From Candidatus Udaeobacter sp. (GTDB lineage Bacteria; Patescibacteriota; Patescibacteriia; Magasanikbacterales; GWA2-37-8): a stretch of DNA of 64,000 bases. Positions 1 to 45,693 of the stretch are shown here, in pieces. The position numbers were made by a program, and so were the translations under genes. The notes below the pieces were generated by a model. That model made no database searches. It worked only from the letters and a program-made list of their open reading frames with translations, and had not been told where the DNA came from. The stretch covers positions 9,469 through 73,468 of the forward strand of contig DATION010000002.1 of the NCBI GenBank assembly GCA_035473115.1. Reading direction: 5' to 3'. How positions within the stretch are numbered: the first letter of the stretch is position 1; every line of letters begins with the position of its first letter.

Positions 1-957
1 ATTGGTGAAACAATTGCTGATTTAAATAATCCAATTGCTTTACCGTTGTTAAAAGTTGAAGAACCGACTGTAAAAATGACTTTTTCCGTTAATGATTCGC
101 CATTTGCCGGTAAAGAAGGCCAGTTTACAACTTCCAGACAAATTAGAGAAAGATTAATGAAAGAATTAGAGACCGATATGGCTCTAAGAGTGGAAGATAG
201 CGACGAAGGTGGTTGGATCGTTTCCGGTCGTGGTGAGTTGCATTTGGCAATTTTAATTGAACGTTTGCGTCGTGAAGGTTATGAATTGCAAGTTTCTCGT
301 CCACAAGTTATAGTTAAAGAAATTGATGGCCAAAAAATGACTCCTTATGAACAGGTATTTATTGAAGTTCCGGAAGCTCATTCCGGATCGGTAATTCAAA
401 AATTAGGCAGCCGGCATGGTGAAATGCGAGAAATGAGAACTGAAAACGGCATTGTTTTCTTAGAATTTATTATTCCGACTCGCGGGTTGTTTGGTTACCG
501 TACTGAATTTTTAACAGATTCTAGAGGATTGGGAATTATCAATACAATTTTTCATCAATATTTACCAGACCCAGGCAATTGGCGCGAACGTGAGCAGGGT
601 TCTTTGGTCGCCCACGAAACTGGTGCCAGTAGTCTATATGGTTTGCTTAACGTGCAAGACAGAGGCGTCATGTTTATTGGTCCGGGTGTGCAGGTTTATA
701 AAGGCCAAGTAGTTGGTCAAAATGCTCGCAGCGAAGATATTAGTGTGAATGTTTGTAAAGAAAAACAGTTATCTAATATGCGTTCTAAAGGTGATGGCAG
801 CGCTGAACATTTTAATACTCCAAAAACAATGGGCTTAGAAGAAGCTTTGGAATATATTGGCGATGATGAATTAGTGGAAATAACTCCAAAAAATGTTAGA
901 ATAAGAAAAGTGGTTTTAGATGAAAATGATGCTCGCCGCAAAGCTAGAGGAATGTAA
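1..957 (+). CDS. typA: GTP-binding protein TypA/BipA, C-terminal part (5' end lies upstream of the window)
   Basis: Frame is open from nt 1; the translated sequence matches the TypA/BipA C-terminal domains (EF-G-like domain plus the TypA-specific C-terminal domain). Listed ORF 46..957 is the internal-Met version. Confidence 0.85.
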   Translation: MGETIADLNNPIALPLLKVEEPTVKMTFSVNDSPFAGKEGQFTTSRQIRERLMKELETDMALRVEDSDEGGWIVSGRGELHLAILIERLRREGYELQVSRPQVIVKEIDGQKMTPYEQVFIEVPEAHSGSVIQKLGSRHGEMREMRTENGIVFLEFIIPTRGLFGYRTEFLTDSRGLGIINTIFHQYLPDPGNWREREQGSLVAHETGASSLYGLLNVQDRGVMFIGPGVQVYKGQVVGQNARSEDISVNVCKEKQLSNMRSKGDGSAEHFNTPKTMGLEEALEYIGDDELVEITPKNVRIRKVVLDENDARRKARGM

Positions 958-3644: not shown

Positions 3645-4409
3645 ATGATGACTTCTAGGTTGCTCGCAGCGGAAACAGTTTCTCAGGTTTTTGATGCCAT
3701 CGGTGCGTTTCCGGATCGCATCAAAGGTGTTGGTGCTGCAGAAGCAGTTCATGTCATTAAGGTTTGTGGTGGGTGGTGGGCCTTTGATGCAAAAAGCGGA
3801 GGGAACCATCCTCAAATAAACGGGATTCACTTTTCTGATTTTATCCATATGGCTCGCGCCATACAGCATCCGCATATCAATGATTTTTTTTCCATGCTGC
3901 TGGTTAGAAAGATTATTCAAAATCTGAACTCTAACCCTGATCAGTATGCTACGAGCTATGTTGTAGCTGCTCTAGATAGAGCCGGAGAGATGCTGGCGCC
4001 TCAAGTTGCGTTTCGTTTACAAAGAGAGTTGTCTGCTTCTGGTTCAGTTGTACAGAGGCCGTTTAGGAGCGATATCTCAGAGCCTATTATTGCAGGAAAA
4101 AAACAAAGAGTGATCTATGTCAGGAGCTTGATTCCTGCATGTGCGGACTTTGATCCGTTTTTGGCACCGCAGCCTGATGGAGCTTTGAAGCCGTTAGTAG
4201 CAGCAGTATTTGACAGAAGAAGGCTGGAGGATGAAGGTTTTTATACTGCCACCGATATTGTATCTTTGGTCAGAAACCAGCTCGTTACTTATAATGTTCA
4301 TGCCGGAGTAGTTTGTCCGCTATGCAAGGCCGGTTCCCTGGCTATTGGTATGAATGGTGTTTATGATAACCCGGAAGTATGGGACAGGCTTACTGGTCGT
4401 AACACCTGA
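3645..4409 (+). CDS. Hypothetical cytoplasmic protein (GC-rich island)
   Basis: 254-aa ORF with a strong RBS GGAGG 8 nt upstream; roughly 50% GC; no recognisable family. Confidence 0.55.
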   Translation: MMTSRLLAAETVSQVFDAIGAFPDRIKGVGAAEAVHVIKVCGGWWAFDAKSGGNHPQINGIHFSDFIHMARAIQHPHINDFFSMLLVRKIIQNLNSNPDQYATSYVVAALDRAGEMLAPQVAFRLQRELSASGSVVQRPFRSDISEPIIAGKKQRVIYVRSLIPACADFDPFLAPQPDGALKPLVAAVFDRRRLEDEGFYTATDIVSLVRNQLVTYNVHAGVVCPLCKAGSLAIGMNGVYDNPEVWDRLTGRNT

Positions 4410-4507: not shown

Positions 4508-4536
4508 ATTGACCGTAAAGCTTTTTTCATATACAA
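4508..4536 (+). promoter_or_regulatory. Putative promoter for dus
   Basis: TTGACC, 17-nt spacer, TACAAT. Confidence 0.4.
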
Positions 4537-4549
4537 TGGTGTATTGATA

Positions 4550-4567
4550 ATATATATATATATATAT
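4550..4567. repeat. (AT)9 dinucleotide microsatellite
   Basis: ATATATATATATATATAT read directly from the sequence. Confidence 0.9.
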
Positions 4568-4636
4568 CTACGGATATATTCTCATTCGTTCGAAAATATT
4601 TTAGTAAACTAAATATTTTGCTCACTCATTTCGATT
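4562..4636 (+). promoter_or_regulatory. Conserved ~75-nt leader element, copy A (abuts the dus ATG)
   Basis: Hairpin ATATATC-TACG-GATATAT, then CTCATTCG box, then CACTCATTTCGATT directly before the ATG. Near-identical to 44712-44790. Confidence 0.5.
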
Positions 4637-5695
4637 ATGGTAAATGGATTTTGGAAAAAATTAAAAAAACCGATAATGGTTCTGGCGCCAATGGCTAATG
4701 TCACCGACGCCGCTTTTCGGCGTATCATTGCGAAATACTCAAAATATGGCGGGCAAGATATGGGCGACTGGTCTAAGGAAAGTTTACCCGTCCGAAGCCT
4801 TAGCGAAGGCGGGCCAGATGTAATGTGGACTGAATTTGTGTCTTGTGACGGCTTAATGTCGCCGGGTCAAAAAAAGTTATTGGTAGATTTTATGTATACC
4901 GAAGCCGAGCGTCCGATCGTGGCGCAGATTTTTGGTTCCAAGCCGGAAAATTTTTATAAAACTGCTTTGCTTATCCAAGAGTTAGGTTTTGACGGCATTG
5001 ATATAAATATGGGCTGTCCGGATAAGAATGTAGAAAAACAGGGCGCCGGAGCCTGTCTAATAAAAAATCCTCAGCTAGCTCAAGAAATTATTCGGGAAAC
5101 AAAACGTGGAGCCGGTAAACTGCCGGTTTCAGTTAAAACCAGAATTGGTTATAATAAAAATTCTCTTAGTGAATGGTTGCCGGCATTGCTGGAAACCGAA
5201 CCCGCAGCCATTACCATCCATGCACGCACACGCAAAGAGTTATCTTTAGTTCCGGCCAAATGGGAAACAGTTGCCGATGCGGTGCGTATTCGTGATAGTT
5301 ATGATAGTTCGGAAAATAAAACTTTGATTTTAGGAAATGGGGACGTAAAAGATTTGGCTGATGCGGCAGAAAAAATAAAAATTAGCGGCGCCGACGGGGT
5401 AATGATCGGACGGGGTATTTTTGGTAATCCTTGGCTGTTTAATCCTGCCGTTGATTATGCCAAAATTCCAATTGAAGAAAAATTAAAAGTGATGGTTGAG
5501 CATACTTATTTGTTTGAAAAACTTCTGGTAGAGCACAAAAGTTTTGATATCATGAAAAAACACTACAAAGCCTATGTTAATGGCTTTGACGGCGCCAAAG
5601 AACTTCGTATTCAGTTGATGGAAGGAGCTAAAACTGCAGGTGATGTAGAAAATATTGTCACAATTTTTTTAGAGAAATTAAAAATATCTCAATAA
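4637..5695 (+). CDS. dus: tRNA-dihydrouridine synthase
   Basis: LAPMANVTDAAFR N-terminus and a TIM-barrel Dus family profile with a conserved Cys (NMGCP). Confidence 0.85.
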   Translation: MVNGFWKKLKKPIMVLAPMANVTDAAFRRIIAKYSKYGGQDMGDWSKESLPVRSLSEGGPDVMWTEFVSCDGLMSPGQKKLLVDFMYTEAERPIVAQIFGSKPENFYKTALLIQELGFDGIDINMGCPDKNVEKQGAGACLIKNPQLAQEIIRETKRGAGKLPVSVKTRIGYNKNSLSEWLPALLETEPAAITIHARTRKELSLVPAKWETVADAVRIRDSYDSSENKTLILGNGDVKDLADAAEKIKISGADGVMIGRGIFGNPWLFNPAVDYAKIPIEEKLKVMVEHTYLFEKLLVEHKSFDIMKKHYKAYVNGFDGAKELRIQLMEGAKTAGDVENIVTIFLEKLKISQ

Positions 5696-11710: not shown

Positions 11711-12232
11711 ATGACAGATGAAGAAAAAAATAAAGAAGATTTGCCAAATGAAGCAGGTGGCATTCCAAGTGAATTAGATTTAGCTCAAGCGCAAGCTGAA
11801 GAATATAAAACTAATTGGCAGCGAGCTTTGGCTGATTATCGTAATTTGCAAAAAGAAACCGCTGCTATGCGTTCGCAATGGGCGCAGATGAGTGAAGAAC
11901 AGATTTTGCAGAATTTTATTCCGGTTTACGAAAATTTTAAAAAAGCATTTAGCGCCAATTTGTCCGCAACCGGCGGTGATAGCGAAAAACAGTGGCAAAA
12001 CTGGAAGCAGGGAATAGAATATATCATGAAGCAATTTGGCGATGTGTTGAAGTCTTATAATGTTCAAGAAATTAAAACTACTGACGAAAAGTTTGATCCG
12101 CGGATGCATGAAGCGATTAGCGAAGAACAGGTGGATGGTAAAGAAGCCGGAATTATTTTAAGAGAAGTTGAAGGTGGATATAAAATGGGTGATAAAATAA
12201 TAAAACCAGCGCGAGTTATTATTAGTAAATAA
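11711..12232 (+). CDS. grpE: Nucleotide exchange factor GrpE
   Basis: Coiled-coil N-terminus and GrpE C-terminal beta domain (...GGYKMGDKIIKPARVII). Confidence 0.85.
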   Translation: MTDEEKNKEDLPNEAGGIPSELDLAQAQAEEYKTNWQRALADYRNLQKETAAMRSQWAQMSEEQILQNFIPVYENFKKAFSANLSATGGDSEKQWQNWKQGIEYIMKQFGDVLKSYNVQEIKTTDEKFDPRMHEAISEEQVDGKEAGIILREVEGGYKMGDKIIKPARVIISK

Positions 12233-12240
12233 GTTTATTT

Positions 12241-27429: not shown

Positions 27430-28959
27430 ATGTTTCGATTATATCTCAAATTTAAGCGAAAAGCAAGCTTAATCATCCTTTTTTTAGCAGGAGTAATTTT
27501 GTTTTTGGCAAACATTCCTGCCTGGTCCAAAGAGCCAAATGATCCGGAATACAATCTGCAACAAACTTTTTATAATCAAATTAGCGCTCCAACTGCCTGG
27601 GATTTCACTAATGGCACAAGCAGCGCGGTGGTAGCAATAATTGATGTGGGTGTAGATATTTCTAATGAAGATTTAAAAGCCAATATTTGGCAAAATCAAA
27701 AAGAATTGCCAGGCAATGGTATTGACGATGACAAAAATGGCTATATAGATGATATTCATGGTTGGAATTTTGTGGAAAAAAATAATGATATAACTGTTTC
27801 TAATCTGAATAATAACTTAGATGATCGCGGAGCTGTCAGTCATGGAACTATTTTAGCCGGACTTATCGGAGCGGTAGGGGATAATAATTTTTTAGGAGCC
27901 GGATTAAATTGGCATATAAAAATTATGCCGCTGCGCGCTGTGCGCAACGATGGCAATGGCTCTTTGGAAGACGTGGCTAAAGCTGTAAATTATGCCGTAA
28001 ATAATGGAGCTGATATTATCAGTCTAAGCTTTGTGGGTGGAGCTACTAATTTTAGTTTAGAAGGAAGTTTGTTTAATGCCAGAAAGCACGGGGTGCTAGT
28101 GGTAGCAGCAGCCGGTAATAACAGAAATGACGGCATTGGCGATGAGGATTCGGCAAAAGTAAAACAGTACCCAATTTGTGTAGATTTTGAAAATTCAGAA
28201 AATTGGATTTTGGGCGTAACTTCGGTTGATAAAAATAATAAGTTAAGCGAGTTCGCCAATTATGGCGCTTGTGTGGATATTACGGCTCCGGGCGAATACA
28301 TTTACAGCACTCAAAAATATTCTCCGCAGTACGGGTATGATAAAAATTTTGCTGGCCCTTGGTTTGGGTCTTCTTTTTCTGTTCCTTTAGTTACCGGCGC
28401 TGCTGCTTTGGTAAAATCAGTCCGCCCAGACTGGGGAGCAAAAGAAATAGTGTCTGATCTGCTGGCTACTACCGATGATATCGATAGTTTAAATCCGGGT
28501 TATGCAGGACAAATTGGCTATGGCCGTTTGAATGTCGGTCGAGCTGTGGCTAGAGCCGTGGAATCAAAATCAAAAATTATTCCTACATTTATTTTTGATG
28601 CAAAATTAATTAAAAAACAGAAAAAATATTTTGTCCGCATTATTTCTGATGAAAAGATTTTGCATGAATTGTCTTTGCCGGGTTATACAGAAAAATCTAG
28701 TAAATGGGCCGTAACTGAGAATTTATTGGTATCTGTCAATCTGAGCCGGAAAAAAATAACTGTAAATGCTTGGGATTGGGAAGGTAAGCAAAAATTAACA
28801 AATTTTGTTTTGGGCGGAGTAGATAGCTTATCTGATTTAAAGATTGATAAAGTGTGGGGTGATAATCCTAATCCAATTTTATTTATTAAACGTACTGGAG
28901 AAAACCAGAAAGTTATTATCGATTTACCAAGTCAGAGCTGGAAGATTGAGCAATTGTAA
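27430..28959 (+). CDS. Secreted subtilisin-like S8 peptidase
   Basis: Signal peptide and the catalytic triad in context: D (AIIDVGVD), H (SHGT), S (GSSFSVP). Confidence 0.85.
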   Translation: MFRLYLKFKRKASLIILFLAGVILFLANIPAWSKEPNDPEYNLQQTFYNQISAPTAWDFTNGTSSAVVAIIDVGVDISNEDLKANIWQNQKELPGNGIDDDKNGYIDDIHGWNFVEKNNDITVSNLNNNLDDRGAVSHGTILAGLIGAVGDNNFLGAGLNWHIKIMPLRAVRNDGNGSLEDVAKAVNYAVNNGADIISLSFVGGATNFSLEGSLFNARKHGVLVVAAAGNNRNDGIGDEDSAKVKQYPICVDFENSENWILGVTSVDKNNKLSEFANYGACVDITAPGEYIYSTQKYSPQYGYDKNFAGPWFGSSFSVPLVTGAAALVKSVRPDWGAKEIVSDLLATTDDIDSLNPGYAGQIGYGRLNVGRAVARAVESKSKIIPTFIFDAKLIKKQKKYFVRIISDEKILHELSLPGYTEKSSKWAVTENLLVSVNLSRKKITVNAWDWEGKQKLTNFVLGGVDSLSDLKIDKVWGDNPNPILFIKRTGENQKVIIDLPSQSWKIEQL

Positions 28960-32174: not shown

Positions 32175-33077
32175 ATGAATTTGATTTCTAACTTTGACTA
32201 TATCCCAGATATAAACTCAACCGCTCGGAAACCTTCTGACAAGTCAGAGGTTTCGCTCGCTAGTTTCGATTATGAAAAATCTATTTGGGGGTATGGTAAT
32301 GCCAGTTTGAGTTTGAAATCGCCAACGAGCTTTCGTTTGCGCCAAAGTTTAAAGTCAATTGCCGAATTAAAAAGTGGAGCAAAGGTTTTGGAATTAGGCT
32401 GCGGAGCTGGCCAGTTTATTCGTGAAATCAAGAAAATCAGACCGGATCTGGATTGTTATGGCTGTGATATTAGTCAACATGCAATTGCTTTGGCCAAACA
32501 AGCTGATGATGGTGTTAGTTATGATTTAAGTACAGAAAACAACTCTACCTATGCCGATAATTTTTTTGATGCGGTTCTGATTTTTGATGTTTTAGAGCAT
32601 GTGGAAAATCCAAGCTTAATTTTATCTGAAGTAAATCGAGTATTAAAAAGCGGGGGAGTATTTTATTCTTTTGTGCCCTGCGAAGCTGACTCGCTATCTT
32701 TTTGGAATTTATTGTACAAACTTGGTTTAAAAAAAGAACTTACTAGAATGTATGCCGGTCACATAAATAAATTTTCTCGCAAGAGTTTGGTAGATATAGT
32801 TCAATCTCATGGTTTCGCTGTAAAATCAGTTAGATATAGCGAGCAGATCCTAGGGCAGTTATTGGGGCTATTTGCATTTTTTTCTATGGATCATTTTGCA
32901 AAGAAAAATCATTTAAGCCAAGTTAATAATGAGCAGTATTTTTATGGCTTAGATCAAAAAGGCGGAGGAGTTTTAAAAGTAATAAAAAATATTGTAAATA
33001 GTTTGGTTGCCTTGGAGTCAATTATTTTTTCTAAAGTTCCATCTCCGAATGTGCATTTAACAGTGGTTAAAAAATAA
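32175..33077 (+). CDS. Class I SAM-dependent methyltransferase
   Basis: VLELGCGAG motif I. Confidence 0.75.
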   Translation: MNLISNFDYIPDINSTARKPSDKSEVSLASFDYEKSIWGYGNASLSLKSPTSFRLRQSLKSIAELKSGAKVLELGCGAGQFIREIKKIRPDLDCYGCDISQHAIALAKQADDGVSYDLSTENNSTYADNFFDAVLIFDVLEHVENPSLILSEVNRVLKSGGVFYSFVPCEADSLSFWNLLYKLGLKKELTRMYAGHINKFSRKSLVDIVQSHGFAVKSVRYSEQILGQLLGLFAFFSMDHFAKKNHLSQVNNEQYFYGLDQKGGGVLKVIKNIVNSLVALESIIFSKVPSPNVHLTVVKK

Positions 33078-34110: not shown

Positions 34111-34146
34111 AAAAAGCAGTTTTTTCAGGGCTGCTTTTTATTTTAT
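34111..34146. terminator. Bidirectional terminator (ytxH-like / recJ)
   Basis: AAAAAGCAG...CTGCTTTTT. Confidence 0.65.
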
Positions 34147-35913
34147 TTTTTTGATATCATCAATTGTCAGTTGTAATTCTCGATTACCGTTCCATTCGTT
34201 TACGCTGAGAGAAAAAACTATATCTATCTTGTCTCCTGGTTTAAGATTTTCTTTCCAGTTTTCAGTGCAACGGTTCACATCGCCCAAGCCAAAGCCGATG
34301 GTTTTTTTAATTACCTGAGATTTATGTTTGACCATTAAGCGTAAATGTTTGCCATCTTGACCGACCGGTTCGATGGCTGTAACTGTCAGATCTCGGGAAA
34401 CGTATTTTGGTTCTTCGTTGGCTTGGCCAAAAGGTTCAAACTTTTCCAACAAATCATAAAGCTTCCAGTTAACTTGGTCCAACTCAACTTCGGCATCAAT
34501 AGTGATTTGCGGCGTTAAATCCACGGCCGCAGTTTGCAAAGCGGTTTTTTCGATAAGTGTTCTTTTGAATTCTTCCAATTTATCTTTTTCTTTTAAAGTA
34601 AAACCGCAAGCTTGAGGATGTCCGCCAAATTTAAGAAACATTTCCGGCATGCTTTGGAGAGCGGCGATTAAATTAAATTCTTTTATACTTCTGCCCGAGC
34701 CGTTTATTTCTGTCTCAGTTTCTCCCATTACGATCGCCGGCTTGTAATGATCATCTTTTATTTTTCCGGAAATTAAACCTAAAATTCCGGTCGGCCAACT
34801 TTTTCCTAAGACAAATAAAATCGGGTTATCTTGCTGCTTAGTTTCTTTTATCTGTTTGCGGGCTTCACTGACGTATTGTTCGGTAAGTTTTTGGCGGTCA
34901 ATATTATTTTTATTCAACTGCAAAGCCAAACTTTCCGCTTCTTTCTCATCTTGCGCCATAAGTAGTGCAAAGGCAGTATTGGCATGATCCATACGTCCGG
35001 CAGCGTTAAGTCTGGGCACAACTTGAAAACTCATCGTGTAGGAATCATAAGTACCGCGTTTGGATTGGCCATTTTCATCAGCCATGCCCGCTACTATAAA
35101 AAGTTTTTTTAAACCAATATTTCTGGTTTTATTAATCACAGTTAGTCCATATTTGGTTATCGTTCTCGATTCGCCCAAGAGCGGCACCATATCGCCAATA
35201 GAAGCAATCGCTGCCAAATCTAAGAGCCACTTTTCAAACCCTTCAAACGTTTGTCCGTCCGGTAAAACGGTATGTGACTGAGAATATTTTTTTAATAATC
35301 CCTGAACCAATTTAAAAGCTACGCCGCCGCCGCAAAGGCCTTTGTCCGGGTATGGTTCGCCAGCTACTAGCGGGTGAATGATAGCATCAGCCTTAGGAAG
35401 TTTGGGCGGCACAGTGTGATGATCGGTAACAATTACTTTTATTTTATATTTTTTTGCCAGATCAATTTCAGCCACATTGCTGACGCCGCAATCGCAAGTA
35501 ATTATTAAATCTGTTTTTTGACTGTGTAAAAGTTCAATCGTACGCAAATTAATCCCATAGCCATCAGTTTCCCGGTGAGGGATAAATACATTTACATTTT
35601 TTGCGCCTAATTTTCGTAGTCCAGTAATAATAATGGCCGAAGAGCAGACACCGTCGGCGTCATAATCTCCGTGGACAACGATGTTTTCCTGTTTGGCTAT
35701 GGCTTTAAAAATAATATCAGTGGCTTTTTCCATGTCTTGAAAAAGAAACGGATCATGGATATCTTGAGAATAATCAGGGTTCAAAAATTCATCAATTTGA
35801 GTTTGGGTGCGCAGATTTCTGTTCCAAAGCAATTGAGCCACGGCAGTTGGTAATTCCGGGTGAGAATTGATAAATTCTATTGGCGGCGCTGGCAGAACAT
35901 TCCATTTTTTCAT
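34138..35913 (-). CDS. recJ: Single-stranded-DNA-specific exonuclease RecJ-like (DHH/DHHA1)
   Basis: DHH motifs (VHGDYDADGV, DHH) plus DHHA1 and an OB-like C-terminus. Start set at MKKWNVLP, not the upstream-extended ORF. Confidence 0.85.
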   Translation of the reverse strand: MKKWNVLPAPPIEFINSHPELPTAVAQLLWNRNLRTQTQIDEFLNPDYSQDIHDPFLFQDMEKATDIIFKAIAKQENIVVHGDYDADGVCSSAIIITGLRKLGAKNVNVFIPHRETDGYGINLRTIELLHSQKTDLIITCDCGVSNVAEIDLAKKYKIKVIVTDHHTVPPKLPKADAIIHPLVAGEPYPDKGLCGGGVAFKLVQGLLKKYSQSHTVLPDGQTFEGFEKWLLDLAAIASIGDMVPLLGESRTITKYGLTVINKTRNIGLKKLFIVAGMADENGQSKRGTYDSYTMSFQVVPRLNAAGRMDHANTAFALLMAQDEKEAESLALQLNKNNIDRQKLTEQYVSEARKQIKETKQQDNPILFVLGKSWPTGILGLISGKIKDDHYKPAIVMGETETEINGSGRSIKEFNLIAALQSMPEMFLKFGGHPQACGFTLKEKDKLEEFKRTLIEKTALQTAAVDLTPQITIDAEVELDQVNWKLYDLLEKFEPFGQANEEPKYVSRDLTVTAIEPVGQDGKHLRLMVKHKSQVIKKTIGFGLGDVNRCTENWKENLKPGDKIDIVFSLSVNEWNGNRELQLTIDDIKKIK

Positions 35914-35974
35914 ACTTAGTAAGATGAGTGAGATCCCGCTAAGCGGGACGAGTGAATGAGTATATATGGATTTT

Positions 35975-36385
35975 TTAATCCATATATATTTCTTTTTTAT
36001 CTCTAAAACTAGTGATAGTAATTTTTTTGAAATCCCAATATGAATCGGCCAAGAGCAGGGTAAAAACAATGAACATTATTTTAATTGTTAAATACTGGTT
36101 TAAAGAAATAGGGGAGTTAAATCTATTAAATAGAATTATGCCCAGAGCAATCCAGTAGATTAAAGTTTTGCTGGTCAGCCTTCTTCTTTCGGAGATATTT
36201 ATTTTGCTTCGTATATTCCAAAGATAGGCAAAATACAAAAGTATTAAAGGGGCCGCTGTATACCATTCAAAATCATGCGGATCTTTGCCAAAATGAGATA
36301 ACGTATAAAAAATTAAAGCCAGTATCAGGATCAAAGCAAAGAAAAGAAAAATAATATCCAGTTGGTATTTGCGTAAGACAAGCAT
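35975..36385 (-). CDS. Hypothetical membrane protein
   Basis: Four predicted TM helices. Confidence 0.45.
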   Translation of the reverse strand: MLVLRKYQLDIIFLFFALILILALIFYTLSHFGKDPHDFEWYTAAPLILLYFAYLWNIRSKINISERRRLTSKTLIYWIALGIILFNRFNSPISLNQYLTIKIMFIVFTLLLADSYWDFKKITITSFRDKKEIYMD

Positions 36386-44276: not shown

Positions 44277-44708
44277 ATGTTCATTGGTGAATACAGCCAC
44301 AGCATAGATGAAAAAGGCAGAATGGCTATACCGGCCAAATTTCGTCAGGAATTAAATAAAGGTGCGGTGGTAACCAGAGGTTTAGATAACTGTCTTTTTA
44401 TTTACACCAAAAGCGAATGGGCAAAGGTGGCAGAAAAATATGCTAATTTGCCAATTGCTCAAGCCAATAGCCGAGCTTTTTCCCGTTTAATGCTGGCTGG
44501 CGCTATGGATGTTGAGCTTGATAAGCAAGGCAGAATTATTTTGCCGGAGTATTTGCGCCAATTTGCCAATGTGAAAAAAAATGTAGTTATCGCTGGTCTA
44601 TATAGCCGGTTAGAAATTTGGGATGAAGAAGTTTGGAATAAATATAAAGGCCAAACTGAAGCCGAGAGCGGCGCGATTGCCGAAAAAATGTCAGAATTAG
44701 GAGTTTAA
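44277..44708 (+). CDS. mraZ: Transcriptional regulator MraZ
   Basis: Duplicated MraZ/SpoVT-AbrB-like domains (MFIGEYSHSIDEKGRMAIPAKFR and DKQGRIILPEYLR). Confidence 0.85.
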   Translation: MFIGEYSHSIDEKGRMAIPAKFRQELNKGAVVTRGLDNCLFIYTKSEWAKVAEKYANLPIAQANSRAFSRLMLAGAMDVELDKQGRIILPEYLRQFANVKKNVVIAGLYSRLEIWDEEVWNKYKGQTEAESGAIAEKMSELGV

Positions 44709-44711
44709 TAA

Positions 44712-44790
44712 AATTATATCTGCGGATATAAACTCATTCGCTCAGAAATAAATTAAAAATATTAATTTATTTCTTTCACTCATTTCGATT
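44712..44790 (+). promoter_or_regulatory. Conserved ~75-nt leader element, copy B (abuts the rsmH ATG)
   Basis: Hairpin TTATATC-TGCG-GATATAA, CTCATTCG box, and CACTCATTTCGATT directly before the ATG. Confidence 0.5.
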
Positions 44791-45693
44791 ATGAAACATA
44801 TACCTGTTTTACTTTCCGAAGCGATAGATTCTTTACAACTTAAGCCAAATCAAAATGTCGTTGATTGCACTTTGGGCGATGCCGGGCATAGTGAAATTAT
44901 TTTGCAAAAAATCGCGCCCAAAGGAAAATTGTTAGGCATAGATCTGGATGCGGAAGCAGTTTTGCGTTCAAAAAGATTTTTATATAATTTTGAATCCAGA
45001 ACTGTAATCGCACGAGATAATTTTGCCAATTTAAAAGCGATTGCTGAGAAAAATAATTTTAAACCGGTTAACGCCATTTTAATGGATTTGGGCTGGTCCA
45101 CGCCGCAATTTGAAGAACGAGGCAGGGGATTCAGTTTTTTAAAAGATGAACCCCTAGACATGCGTTATTCAACCATCGAACTACAAACCGCCGCAGACAT
45201 TATAAATAGTTATAGCGAAAGCGAGTTGGCAGGTATATTCAAAAATTTTGGTGAAGAAAGTTTAAGCAAAGAAATAGCCAAAGCCGTTGCAAGTTATAGG
45301 AAGAACAAAAAAATAGCCAAAACAGGAGAGTTAGCAGAAATAATTTTGCAAGTGTATAGAGAAAAACTGCGTACAAATAAAGAAATTCCCTGGATCGGCG
45401 GTTTACATCCGGCCACAAAAGTTTTTCAAGCACTGCGCATGGAAGTAAATCATGAGTTGGATAATTTAAAAAAAGTTTTGCCGCAAGCCGTAGAAATTTT
45501 GGCCGGCGGCGGCAGATTGGCGGTAATCTCGTTTCATTCTTTGGAAGATAGAATCGTAAAACAATATTTTAAATCAATTGCGGGTAAAACAATAAAATTA
45601 ATTAATAAAAAACCGTTAATAGCTAGTGAGGAAGAAATAAAAAATAACCCCCGCGCTCGGAGCGCTAAGCTGAGGGTAATAGAAAAAATTTAA
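44791..45693 (+). CDS. rsmH: 16S rRNA (cytosine1402-N4)-methyltransferase RsmH (MraW)
   Basis: MraW family signature; dcw cluster context. Confidence 0.9.
   Translation: MKHIPVLLSEAIDSLQLKPNQNVVDCTLGDAGHSEIILQKIAPKGKLLGIDLDAEAVLRSKRFLYNFESRTVIARDNFANLKAIAEKNNFKPVNAILMDLGWSTPQFEERGRGFSFLKDEPLDMRYSTIELQTAADIINSYSESELAGIFKNFGEESLSKEIAKAVASYRKNKKIAKTGELAEIILQVYREKLRTNKEIPWIGGLHPATKVFQALRMEVNHELDNLKKVLPQAVEILAGGGRLAVISFHSLEDRIVKQYFKSIAGKTIKLINKKPLIASEEEIKNNPRARSAKLRVIEKI

Follow-up and report, generated by a model that had tools for sequence, protein, structure and literature searches.

Leaders of dus and rsmH in a Magasanikbacteria genome read as copies of a previously undescribed interspersed repeat family

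Two genes lying far apart in a stretch of 64,000 nucleotides (the window, G+C about 39%) are preceded by nearly identical leaders that run without a break into their start codons, and this raises the question of what kind of sequence comes to be shared in such a way. The genes are dus, for a tRNA dihydrouridine synthase, and rsmH, for a 16S rRNA methyltransferase; their identities and that of mraZ, upstream of rsmH, are confirmed by Pfam, and the window Dus and RsmH are nearest to proteins named Candidatus Magasanikbacteria or Patescibacteria. An earlier note on this DNA took the shared leader for a cis-regulatory RNA, or a dedicated promoter or translation-initiation module, and saw meaning in the fact that both genes modify RNA. 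The best reading to emerge from the present analysis is that the two leaders are copies of a previously undescribed interspersed repeat family in Candidatus Magasanikbacteria, a member of the candidate phyla radiation. With a probability of roughly 0.55, we take the element to be a mobile, non-autonomous repeat that prefers the site TAT/GAAA (the slash marks the point of insertion) and that, once inserted, becomes part of the transcript as a leader lacking a Shine-Dalgarno sequence.

The two leaders stand where the earlier note had placed them, with a mean column identity of 81% in pairwise alignment and 18 consecutive identical bases, TCACTCATTTCGATTATG, ending at the ATG. Measured from first TAT to last TAT, copy 1 occupies 4563-4638 of the forward strand, its final AT being the start of the dus ATG at 4637. 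Copy 2 (44715-44792, forward) fills the mraZ-rsmH spacer, beginning 6 nt past the mraZ stop codon (44706-44708) and ending at the rsmH ATG at 44791. Both are built from the same parts. A first hairpin, HP1, which had been recognised in both leaders, reads ATATATC-TACG-GATATAT at 4562-4579 and TATATC-TGCG-GATATA at 44715-44730. It is followed by box A, CTCATTCG in either copy (4581-4588 and 44733-44740), by a second hairpin, HP2, and by the 16-nt box B, which is fused to the ATG (CTCACTCATTTCGATT at 4621-4636 in copy 1, TTCACTCATTTCGATT at 44775-44790 in copy 2). HP2 had been missed: its sequence differs between the copies and its pairing is retained, as AAAATATTTTAG-TAAA-CTAAATATTTT with one bulged T at 4593-4619 (with the bulge shown, AAAATATTT(T)AG-TAAA-CTAAATATTTT) and as a perfect 13-bp stem, AGAAATAAATTAA-AAATA-TTAATTTATTTCT, at 44744-44774. 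By itself the fold of copy 1 is weak (whole-leader z = -0.1); that of the copy 2 leader has z = -3.8. The 14-mer CACTCATTTCGATT that closes box B (4623-4636 and 44777-44790) is, as claimed, identical ahead of both ATGs and occurs exactly twice in the window. Since its looser matches are at chance level (10 with up to three mismatches against 8.0 expected), only the two exact copies count. The conserved box is likewise present in both copies, although the pattern (T/C)TC(G/A)GAAA given for it is one base off for copy 1, which reads TTCGAAAA.

The element extends far beyond this pair. A scan for the pattern CTCATTCG-N25-50-CACTCATTTCGATT, with one genome per species, returned 38 matches in 17 assemblies, all of them Patescibacteria or Magasanikbacteria by title or gene content, where about 2 would be expected by chance on our own estimate. 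A covariance model, R1, scored copies 1 and 2 at 87 and 68 bits, found 53 strong copies (above 45 bits) in the 409 kb of sequence searched, and detected in the window two diverged copies that had escaped the first inspection, bringing its total to four. The search of related genomes for further copies, which the earlier note had proposed, thus brought up dozens in at least 17 genomes, and its view of the leader as a recurrent module, due neither to chance nor to local duplication, has been borne out. A chance match, or a recent duplication limited to dus and rsmH, is refuted by these matches and by the two additional window copies, and its probability is close to nil. Loci from other genomes are numbered here from L002 to L054, and 8-kb pieces of the host genomes were compared. 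Several of the records involved (CAZXML, CAZUFD, CAYIHE, CAYIJG, CAZBWU, CAYXJO, CAZXFG and CAYZYP, including L008, L011, L012, L014, L015 and others) are titled 'uncultured Gammaproteobacteria' and have Patescibacteria-type gene content, so that their labels are likely wrong; the same doubt applies to protein P0121 and to the name Candidatus Udaeobacter sp. carried by the exact window RsmH.

All pattern matches have a common anatomy, which reads from 5' to 3' as TAT; HP1, with a variable, covarying stem; AW; box A; HP2, with a strongly covarying stem of 11-14 bp; and box B, CTCACTCATTTCGATTAT. From TAT to TAT a copy measures 71-93 nt, with a median of 81, and conservation reaches beyond what the pattern demands, to ATATA(A/T)N before box A and AT after box B. 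A plain MAFFT alignment misaligned the hairpin regions, and RNAalifold accordingly found no structure in it; it was replaced by an ungapped alignment of 25 sequences with specified structure. In this alignment 82% of HP2 cells are paired, compared with 37-52% when the partners are slid, changes fall on both sides at 10 of 11 pairs, and the observed score was reached by none of 500 shuffles. HP1 is less regular, with at least six pairs in 30 of 54 copies; at the sixth pair 16 copies have G-C and 7 have C-G, and its inner stems can be unrelated (GGGC/GCCC, CGATTG/CAATCG). The loops are not conserved. The boxes, in turn, hardly vary over at least 17 species, in which the hairpin sequences diverge by compensated changes. 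The family is therefore real and structured. The bulge in HP2 was considered as a protein recognition mark and dropped, being limited to the 34-nt class; stems of the 35-36-nt class are perfect.

It does not correspond to any catalogued RNA among those looked for. At gathering thresholds Rfam 15 yields one tRNA in the whole window and nothing else, and at E values up to 10 the two leaders give sub-threshold noise only, with no riboswitch, T-box, ribozyme, ribosomal-protein leader or thermometer. Nothing relevant came up when the literature on Magasanikbacteria, Patescibacteria and the candidate phyla radiation was searched for a repeat of this kind; as far as we can tell, the start-codon register and the layout of two boxes and two hairpins are new. 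Three 17-mer matches in viral contigs, without hairpins or box A, are attributed to chance. The family is probably wider than R1 detects. A distant variant with other boxes (TTTACTRCRCTTG ... CTCACTTCGYTTGTAAATAAA, or CTCACTTTACTTG) was seen at L035 ~3750-3840 (reverse strand), L042 ~660-750 (forward) and L009 2781-2844 (forward), either arranged in tandem with canonical copies or following trmD.

At orthologous sites in relatives the element is present in some genomes and absent from others. The dus site is occupied in the window and empty in L003 (Dus 85% identical), L002 (81%) and L004 (78%), and the promoter is conserved: the window's sigma-70-type promoter, TTGACC-17-TACAAT at 4509-4537 (forward), is orthologous to that of the element-free dus in these relatives, where TTGACC...TATAAT lies 8-27 nt before the ATG. 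The rsmH site is occupied in the window and in L046 (RsmH 90%), where the 3' half of HP2 has been deleted and both boxes are intact, and empty in L047 and L049 (82%), with spacers of 12 and 10 nt. Conversely, the mntH and dnaK sites are occupied in L002 and empty in the window. The rplN-rplX spacer is occupied in L010 and L013 (forward) and in L018 (reverse) and empty in L030, and the rpsE site is occupied in L030 and empty in L010. The first codons of the genes, and with them the native N-termini, are identical in the occupied and empty states, so the element brings no start codon of its own. At one site the HP2 subfamilies can differ between genomes, and these subfamilies are met again at different sites and in further genomes, a distribution that repeated insertion or conversion would fit better than slow divergence in place. 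Beside these sites, two local peculiarities were observed. An (AT)n run of about 10 units at 4549-4567 joins the native dus leader, TTGATAAT, to HP1, where the element-free L002 has only ATTATAT; slippage at the insertion junction may have occurred. In the more distant relative L052 (1404-1500, likewise in L051), an unlike insert of 95 nt occupies the mraZ-rsmH spacer; it has none of the boxes, contains a 14-bp long-range inverted repeat, GAAATTAAGAAATT ... AATTTCTTAATTTC, and looks like some other intergenic element at the same site.

The placement relative to genes is exact in most copies. A G follows the element, making an ATG, in 39 of 53 copies (binomial p = 2e-15 at a base G frequency of 0.22), a long open reading frame (ORF) is opened by 38 of these 39, and overall about 72% of copies are fused base for base to a start codon and about 80% share the orientation of the downstream gene. 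The genes so docked encode proteins of DNA metabolism (primase, dnaG; topoisomerase I, topA; a UvrD-type helicase, uvrD/pcrA; RecJ), of translation (TrmD, RsmI, L24 or rplX twice, S5 or rpsE, an RNase J-like protein) and others such as DnaK, an Nramp transporter (mntH) and glycosyltransferases. Given these unrelated functions, the supposed link to RNA-modifying enzymes falls away, and the two RNA-modification genes of the window are a coincidence. Upstream, in about 18 copies a co-directional gene ends inside HP1 or within 10 nt of it, so that the element is the entire intergenic spacer, and in L021, L023 and L026 an altered base in the 5' arm of HP1 creates the upstream stop codon. About eight copies are reversed with respect to both neighbours, their box B end abutting the stop of the opposite-strand gene or providing its TAA. 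The copies lacking an ATG are mostly these reversed ones, and no RNA genes were found 3' of them. Copies can also adjoin one another, as in the full tandem dimer of L024 and in L005, L022 and L019, where a full element is placed after a solo box B. Another solo box B (CTCACTCATTTTGAATAT followed by G) stands at L013 746-763 (reverse) directly before the rplN start codon, with neither hairpins nor box A.

The two diverged copies of the window illustrate both the rule and its exception, placement within a coding sequence being seen in only one of about 54 copies. That exception is copy 3 (32199-32273, forward; R1 match 32209-32274, 63 bits), composed of HP1 TATATC-CCA-GATATA, a box A' CTCAACCG, a GC-richer HP2 at 32226-32255 and a box B' CTCGCTAGTTTCGATT, and located in an S-adenosylmethionine-dependent methyltransferase ORF (32175-33077, forward). 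The inserted unit, 32202-32273, measures exactly 72 nt and adds 24 residues in frame after residue 9, in the N-terminal region. A length of 272 residues and the start MAFDYEKSIWG are found in most homologues; in the window protein and six others, 24 additional residues follow FDY, and long forms of 291-300 residues occur next to short ones among close homologues. Copy 3 thus qualifies as an in-frame palindromic insertion of the Rickettsia palindromic element (RPE) kind, leaving the frame unbroken and being absent from the 272-residue homologues. The empty allele reads ATG GCT TTT GAT TAC and then GAA AAA (TTTGATTAC/GAAAAA); in occupied alleles TTT GA(C/T) TAT is followed by 72 nt ending TTC GAT TAT and then by GA(A/G) AAA, so that the copy 3 site is flanked by TTTGA(C/T)TAT and TTCGATTAT. 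These alleles indicate that the insertion site resembled the element's own 3' end followed by GAAAA. The ATG abutting copy 3 at 32272 is out of frame, opens just 12 codons and is not a working start. The gene with the insertion was also observed in L053 and L054, and the L054 in-gene copy retains canonical boxes and both hairpins.

Copy 4 (35914-35986, reverse; R1 match 35915-35967, 27 bits, E about 7e-4) follows the rule. It consists of HP1 TATATGGATT-AAAA-AATCCATATA, a box A' CTCATTCA, a short GC-rich HP2, GTCCCGC-TTA-GCGGGAT, and a box B' CTCACTCATCTTACTAAGT, has the orientation of its minus-strand genes and is fused to the recJ ATG (35913-35911, reverse), from which the RecJ domains run; the ORF upstream of it stops (TAA, 35977-35975) within its HP1. 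The mechanically called recJ ORF (34138-36069, reverse) begins with TTG at 36069, traverses the element and gains 52 codons, the likely true start being the ATG at 35913; database RsmH homologues of 320-338 residues look similarly over-extended, by 20-38 residues. A further model match at 12179-12240 (reverse, E = 0.06) was rejected, as it lies inside the coding end of the ORF 11711-12232.

How such precision could arise is suggested by the insertion sites. The element begins with TAT in 39 of the 43 copies with a placeable start (AAT, GAT or TGT in the other four), all 53 strong copies end in AT, and the five bases to the right are G, A, A, A and A in 39, 38, 36, 36 and 32 of the 53. An A follows the ATG in 77% of docked genes compared with 31% of element-free window genes (p = 3e-5), and the second codon is AAA in 49% against a background of 11%. 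On the left, 6 of 43 copies have TT[CT]G[AT][CT], a sequence that precedes 0.8% of all TATs (p = 1e-6); among them are the L024 tandem dimer and the copies that follow a solo box B. Only 4 of the window's 17 TATGAAA sequences coincide with a gene start, so that site preference alone would place most insertions within genes, where they would be lost unless in frame, which is rare. Docking is therefore best read as site preference combined with purifying selection. In the sequence of events we propose, a non-autonomous mobile DNA would insert next to TAT, preferring TAT/GAAA and sites like its own 3' end (TTYGAYTAT); as genes of these AT-rich genomes usually start T-ATG-AAA, this preference and the loss of disruptive insertions would pile copies up before start codons. 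The inserted element would then be transcribed within the mRNA, as a 5' untranslated region (UTR) or an intercistronic spacer, both hairpins would fold and leave the pyrimidine-rich, G-poor box B single-stranded beside the AUG, and box B would act as a translation-initiation region without a Shine-Dalgarno sequence. Such a role of box B would make it understandable that essential genes tolerate the element and that box B outlasts the decay of the rest.

The location of the copies suggests that the element is transcribed with the downstream gene. Upstream of copy 1 lie a terminator and then the TTGACC-17-TACAAT promoter, which would put the copy within a 5' UTR of about 90 nt; at the rsmH locus the only promoter detected is before mraZ. 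Together these positions support the view that both copies lie inside transcribed leaders, copy 1 downstream of a promoter and copy 2 between mraZ and rsmH. Scans of copies 1 and 2 found no sigma-70 promoter inside either and no intrinsic-terminator-like site, HP2 being AT-rich and followed by CUCACUCAU. Many copies exactly fill stop-to-start spacers in operons, and since essential genes in ribosomal-protein operons carry the element, it cannot block transcription or translation. With a single G among its 16 nt, box B contains no Shine-Dalgarno sequence, and folding predictions leave it more unpaired than the corresponding region of genes that lack the element (0.65 against 0.46, p = 5e-9). 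It also persists, as shown by the solo box B before rplN and by L046, which keeps both boxes without a complete HP2. Together, these observations point to box B as a putative unstructured initiation tract and to hairpins that would be needed for something else, for example mobility or insulation. The earlier note was right that no GGAGG-like sequence precedes either ATG, yet this does not set the two genes apart: a Shine-Dalgarno sequence is missing from most window genes, and several have a -10 box 6-8 nt 5' of the ATG, in a leaderless layout. TATAAT-like boxes 2-8 nt before the ATG were noted at window positions 27430, 46111 and 5818 and at L003 1555-1573, where the mRNAs are probably leaderless.

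Several points weigh against a mobile repeat that becomes a translated gene's leader. No transposase or autonomous parent element has been seen, and no solo left end was found; no TnpA gene was found in the 8-kb host-genome pieces, and no RAYT gene was seen, although none was looked for. (An IS1595-family DDE transposase gene does lie just upstream of mraZ at L049 8-874, reverse strand, in the Parcubacteria Gr01-1014_13 genome, which has at least three element copies, with no evident link to the element.) The ends of the element match at 4.56 of 16 positions, compared with 4.58 when shuffled, so that it has no terminal inverted repeats and does not qualify as a classical miniature inverted-repeat transposable element. 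The TAT at its ends could have arisen by duplication, be the target or belong to the element, and 'TATG' at empty sites was dropped as proof of a TA or TAT target, because T stands at -1 in 34 of 46 element-free ATG starts (74%) anyway (p = 0.18). The ATGAAA enrichment could reflect selection for translation and not target choice, and recognition by a host factor would explain equally well why the boxes hardly vary between species. As R1 matches come from loci picked for already carrying a copy, densities drawn from them are biased. Co-transcription is argued from position. The strand signal of the hairpins is indecisive (23 G-U cells against 14 with A-C, the two strands having similar fold energies), so that they may serve DNA transposition rather than RNA, and in the predictions the AUG itself comes out slightly more paired than that of control genes (0.34 against 0.46) through a weak UCAU/AUGA contact.

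Other explanations must be set beside this one. A bolder version holds the element to be a portable translation-initiation cassette that replaces the Shine-Dalgarno sequence, is read by the ribosome or a factor through the invariant CUCAUU(U)CG boxes, and has spread by recognising the start context TAT/GAAA without inverted repeats or a known transposase; we regard it as tentative and rather doubtful. Pairing of box A or box B with the 16S rRNA of Magasanikbacteria was examined and rejected, the best duplexes being no stronger than those of shuffled boxes. The rRNA used is the complete gene at L009 4074-5697 (forward) of Candidatus Magasanikbacteria RIFOXYD1_FULL_40_23, whose 3' end is the canonical anti-Shine-Dalgarno GAUCACCUCCUUU; it happens to lie 2 kb downstream of an element-docked trmD. 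Closer to the earlier proposal is a host cis-regulatory leader, in which a protein or small RNA would read the invariant single-stranded boxes, CUCAUUCG and CUCACUCAUUUCGAUU, and jointly set the translation or stability of 5-10% of genes, possibly by a switch in which UCG(G)AAAU at the foot of HP2 pairs with AUUUCGA in box B and hides the initiation region. The constancy of the boxes over at least 17 species while the hairpins drift with compensation, their fixed spacing to the AUG and the solo box B kept before rplN would all suit such a regulon; the alternative UCGAAA/UUUCGA pairing is the predicted minimum-energy fold of copy 1, and in copy 3 the change of GGAAAU to GGAAAC is matched by that of AUUUCG to GUUUCG. 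This compensated example is, however, a single one, and box B variants in L023 and L038 break the pairing. The docked genes have no common function and their set varies between close relatives, about eight copies are antisense to both neighbours, one with canonical boxes is translated within a coding sequence, tandem dimers exist, and the boxes lack complementarity to 16S rRNA. With presence and absence at orthologous sites added to the reversed and in-frame copies, a shared cis-regulatory leader is not supported, and we consider it unlikely.

Still less probable is an RNA-processing cassette, in which a host nuclease, or the RNA itself, would cut between GAUU and AUG to release a leaderless mRNA with a 5'-terminal AUG. 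The element does terminate exactly at the AUG, and leaderless starts appear common, given the several window genes with a -10 box 6-8 nt before the ATG. First-gene copies in L041, L015, L016 and L024 lie 5-8 nt past a -10-like hexamer, as would result if an insertion had parted a leaderless gene from its promoter, and the empty dus site of L003 reads TATAAT-N8-ATG. No known ribozyme or processing motif is matched, though, even at E up to 10, the unconserved loops give no sign of a tertiary fold, and the reversed, in-coding-sequence and non-ATG copies do not fit. As for a promoter, the 3' arm of HP1 and two further bases do spell TATAAT directly before box A in 18 of 53 copies (TATATT in 12, TATAAA in 13), where transcription could be imagined to start in box A. 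Such a portable promoter, dedicated or otherwise, is nevertheless very improbable: there is neither a conserved -35 nor a TG extension, the final T of the hexamer is missing in 18 of 53, the consensus scan puts the sole promoter upstream of the element (dus) or of mraZ (rsmH), many copies are intercistronic in ribosomal-protein and other operons, the divergent gene pairs of L016 retain 133 bp of promoter space between two elements, and the TATAT/ATATA arms are explained by the hairpin. Three further likenesses, between CTCACT and T7/T3 promoters, between the boxes and the initiator tRNA anticodon loop and between HP1 with box A and nut/rrn boxB-boxA, are short matches that lacked supporting context and were set aside.

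If the element is indeed a mobile repeat, it is of interest to ask which known systems it resembles. By its missing inverted repeats and its short target resembling its own end it appears most like the miniature derivatives of IS200/IS605 (palindrome-associated transposable elements). These, too, have no clear target duplication, carry hairpins near each end and can occur in tandem beside an existing copy, and they insert next to a short specific sequence, as this element appears to do. End hairpins of the IS608 type are, however, alike, whereas HP1 and HP2 are unrelated and HP2 varies between copies, and the orientation of the present element, including that of the minus-strand copy 4, follows the gene and not the replication strand, as far as the window shows. 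The REP/BIME sequences and REPINs of proteobacteria, which owe their mobility to the Y1 transposase RAYT (IS200/IS605 superfamily), are likewise short, abundant, hairpin-forming intergenic repeats within transcription units, with hairpin sequence subfamilies and tandem or compound arrangements. A REP, though, consists of one imperfect palindrome with a conserved 5' GTAG; REPs often form head-to-head pairs, and most of them are found at the 3' ends of genes. An element that is directional and docked to start codons, with two unlike hairpins, invariant non-palindromic boxes and no GTAG, cannot be counted among them.

The Correia elements (NEMIS) of Neisseria and ERIC/IRU of enterobacteria are also small non-autonomous repeats in transcribed intergenic regions. 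They are co-transcribed with their neighbours and can alter mRNA processing, stability or translation. They differ in having terminal inverted repeats, one long hairpin, a TA duplication (Correia) and no start-codon register, and they share no sequence similarity with the present element. The likeness to RPEs lies in copy 3, an in-frame insertion kept as extra residues, yet RPEs are mostly inside genes, which is here the exception. Small mobile repeats marked by two hairpins and not by a protein-coding part are known from compact AT-rich genomes in the double-hairpin elements of Allomyces mitochondria and in the repetitive hairpin-forming elements of sponge mitochondria (PMC2800124 for the sponges); these differ in their organelle host, their unrelated sequences and their lack of a relation to start codons. 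Finally, the pyrimidine-rich enhancers that depend on ribosomal protein S1 resemble box B as G-poor, pyrimidine-rich tracts by the AUG, predicted to be unpaired and without a Shine-Dalgarno sequence. S1-dependent leaders are gene-specific, not a repeated mobile cassette, and a role of S1 for this element can only be surmised.

Bacteria of the candidate phyla radiation have small, compact genomes that are generally believed to be repeat-poor. Against this, four copies in the 64-kb window and two in 45 kb of unselected relatives amount to about one copy per 15-20 kb (this would give roughly 50 per Mb) of an element that rewrites the 5' ends of essential genes and appears mobile without the usual hallmarks of a transposon. 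It also misleads gene callers, which accounts for the RsmH entries and the recJ ORF that are too long, and its site occupancy could mark strains in groundwater metagenomes. Close relatives that have the same gene in both states, leader present or absent, make the family a natural experiment in Shine-Dalgarno-free initiation in an uncultured lineage. Should the more doubtful portable-cassette version prove true, it would be the first mobile element known to target start codons, in a host lineage with many leaderless and Shine-Dalgarno-less genes.

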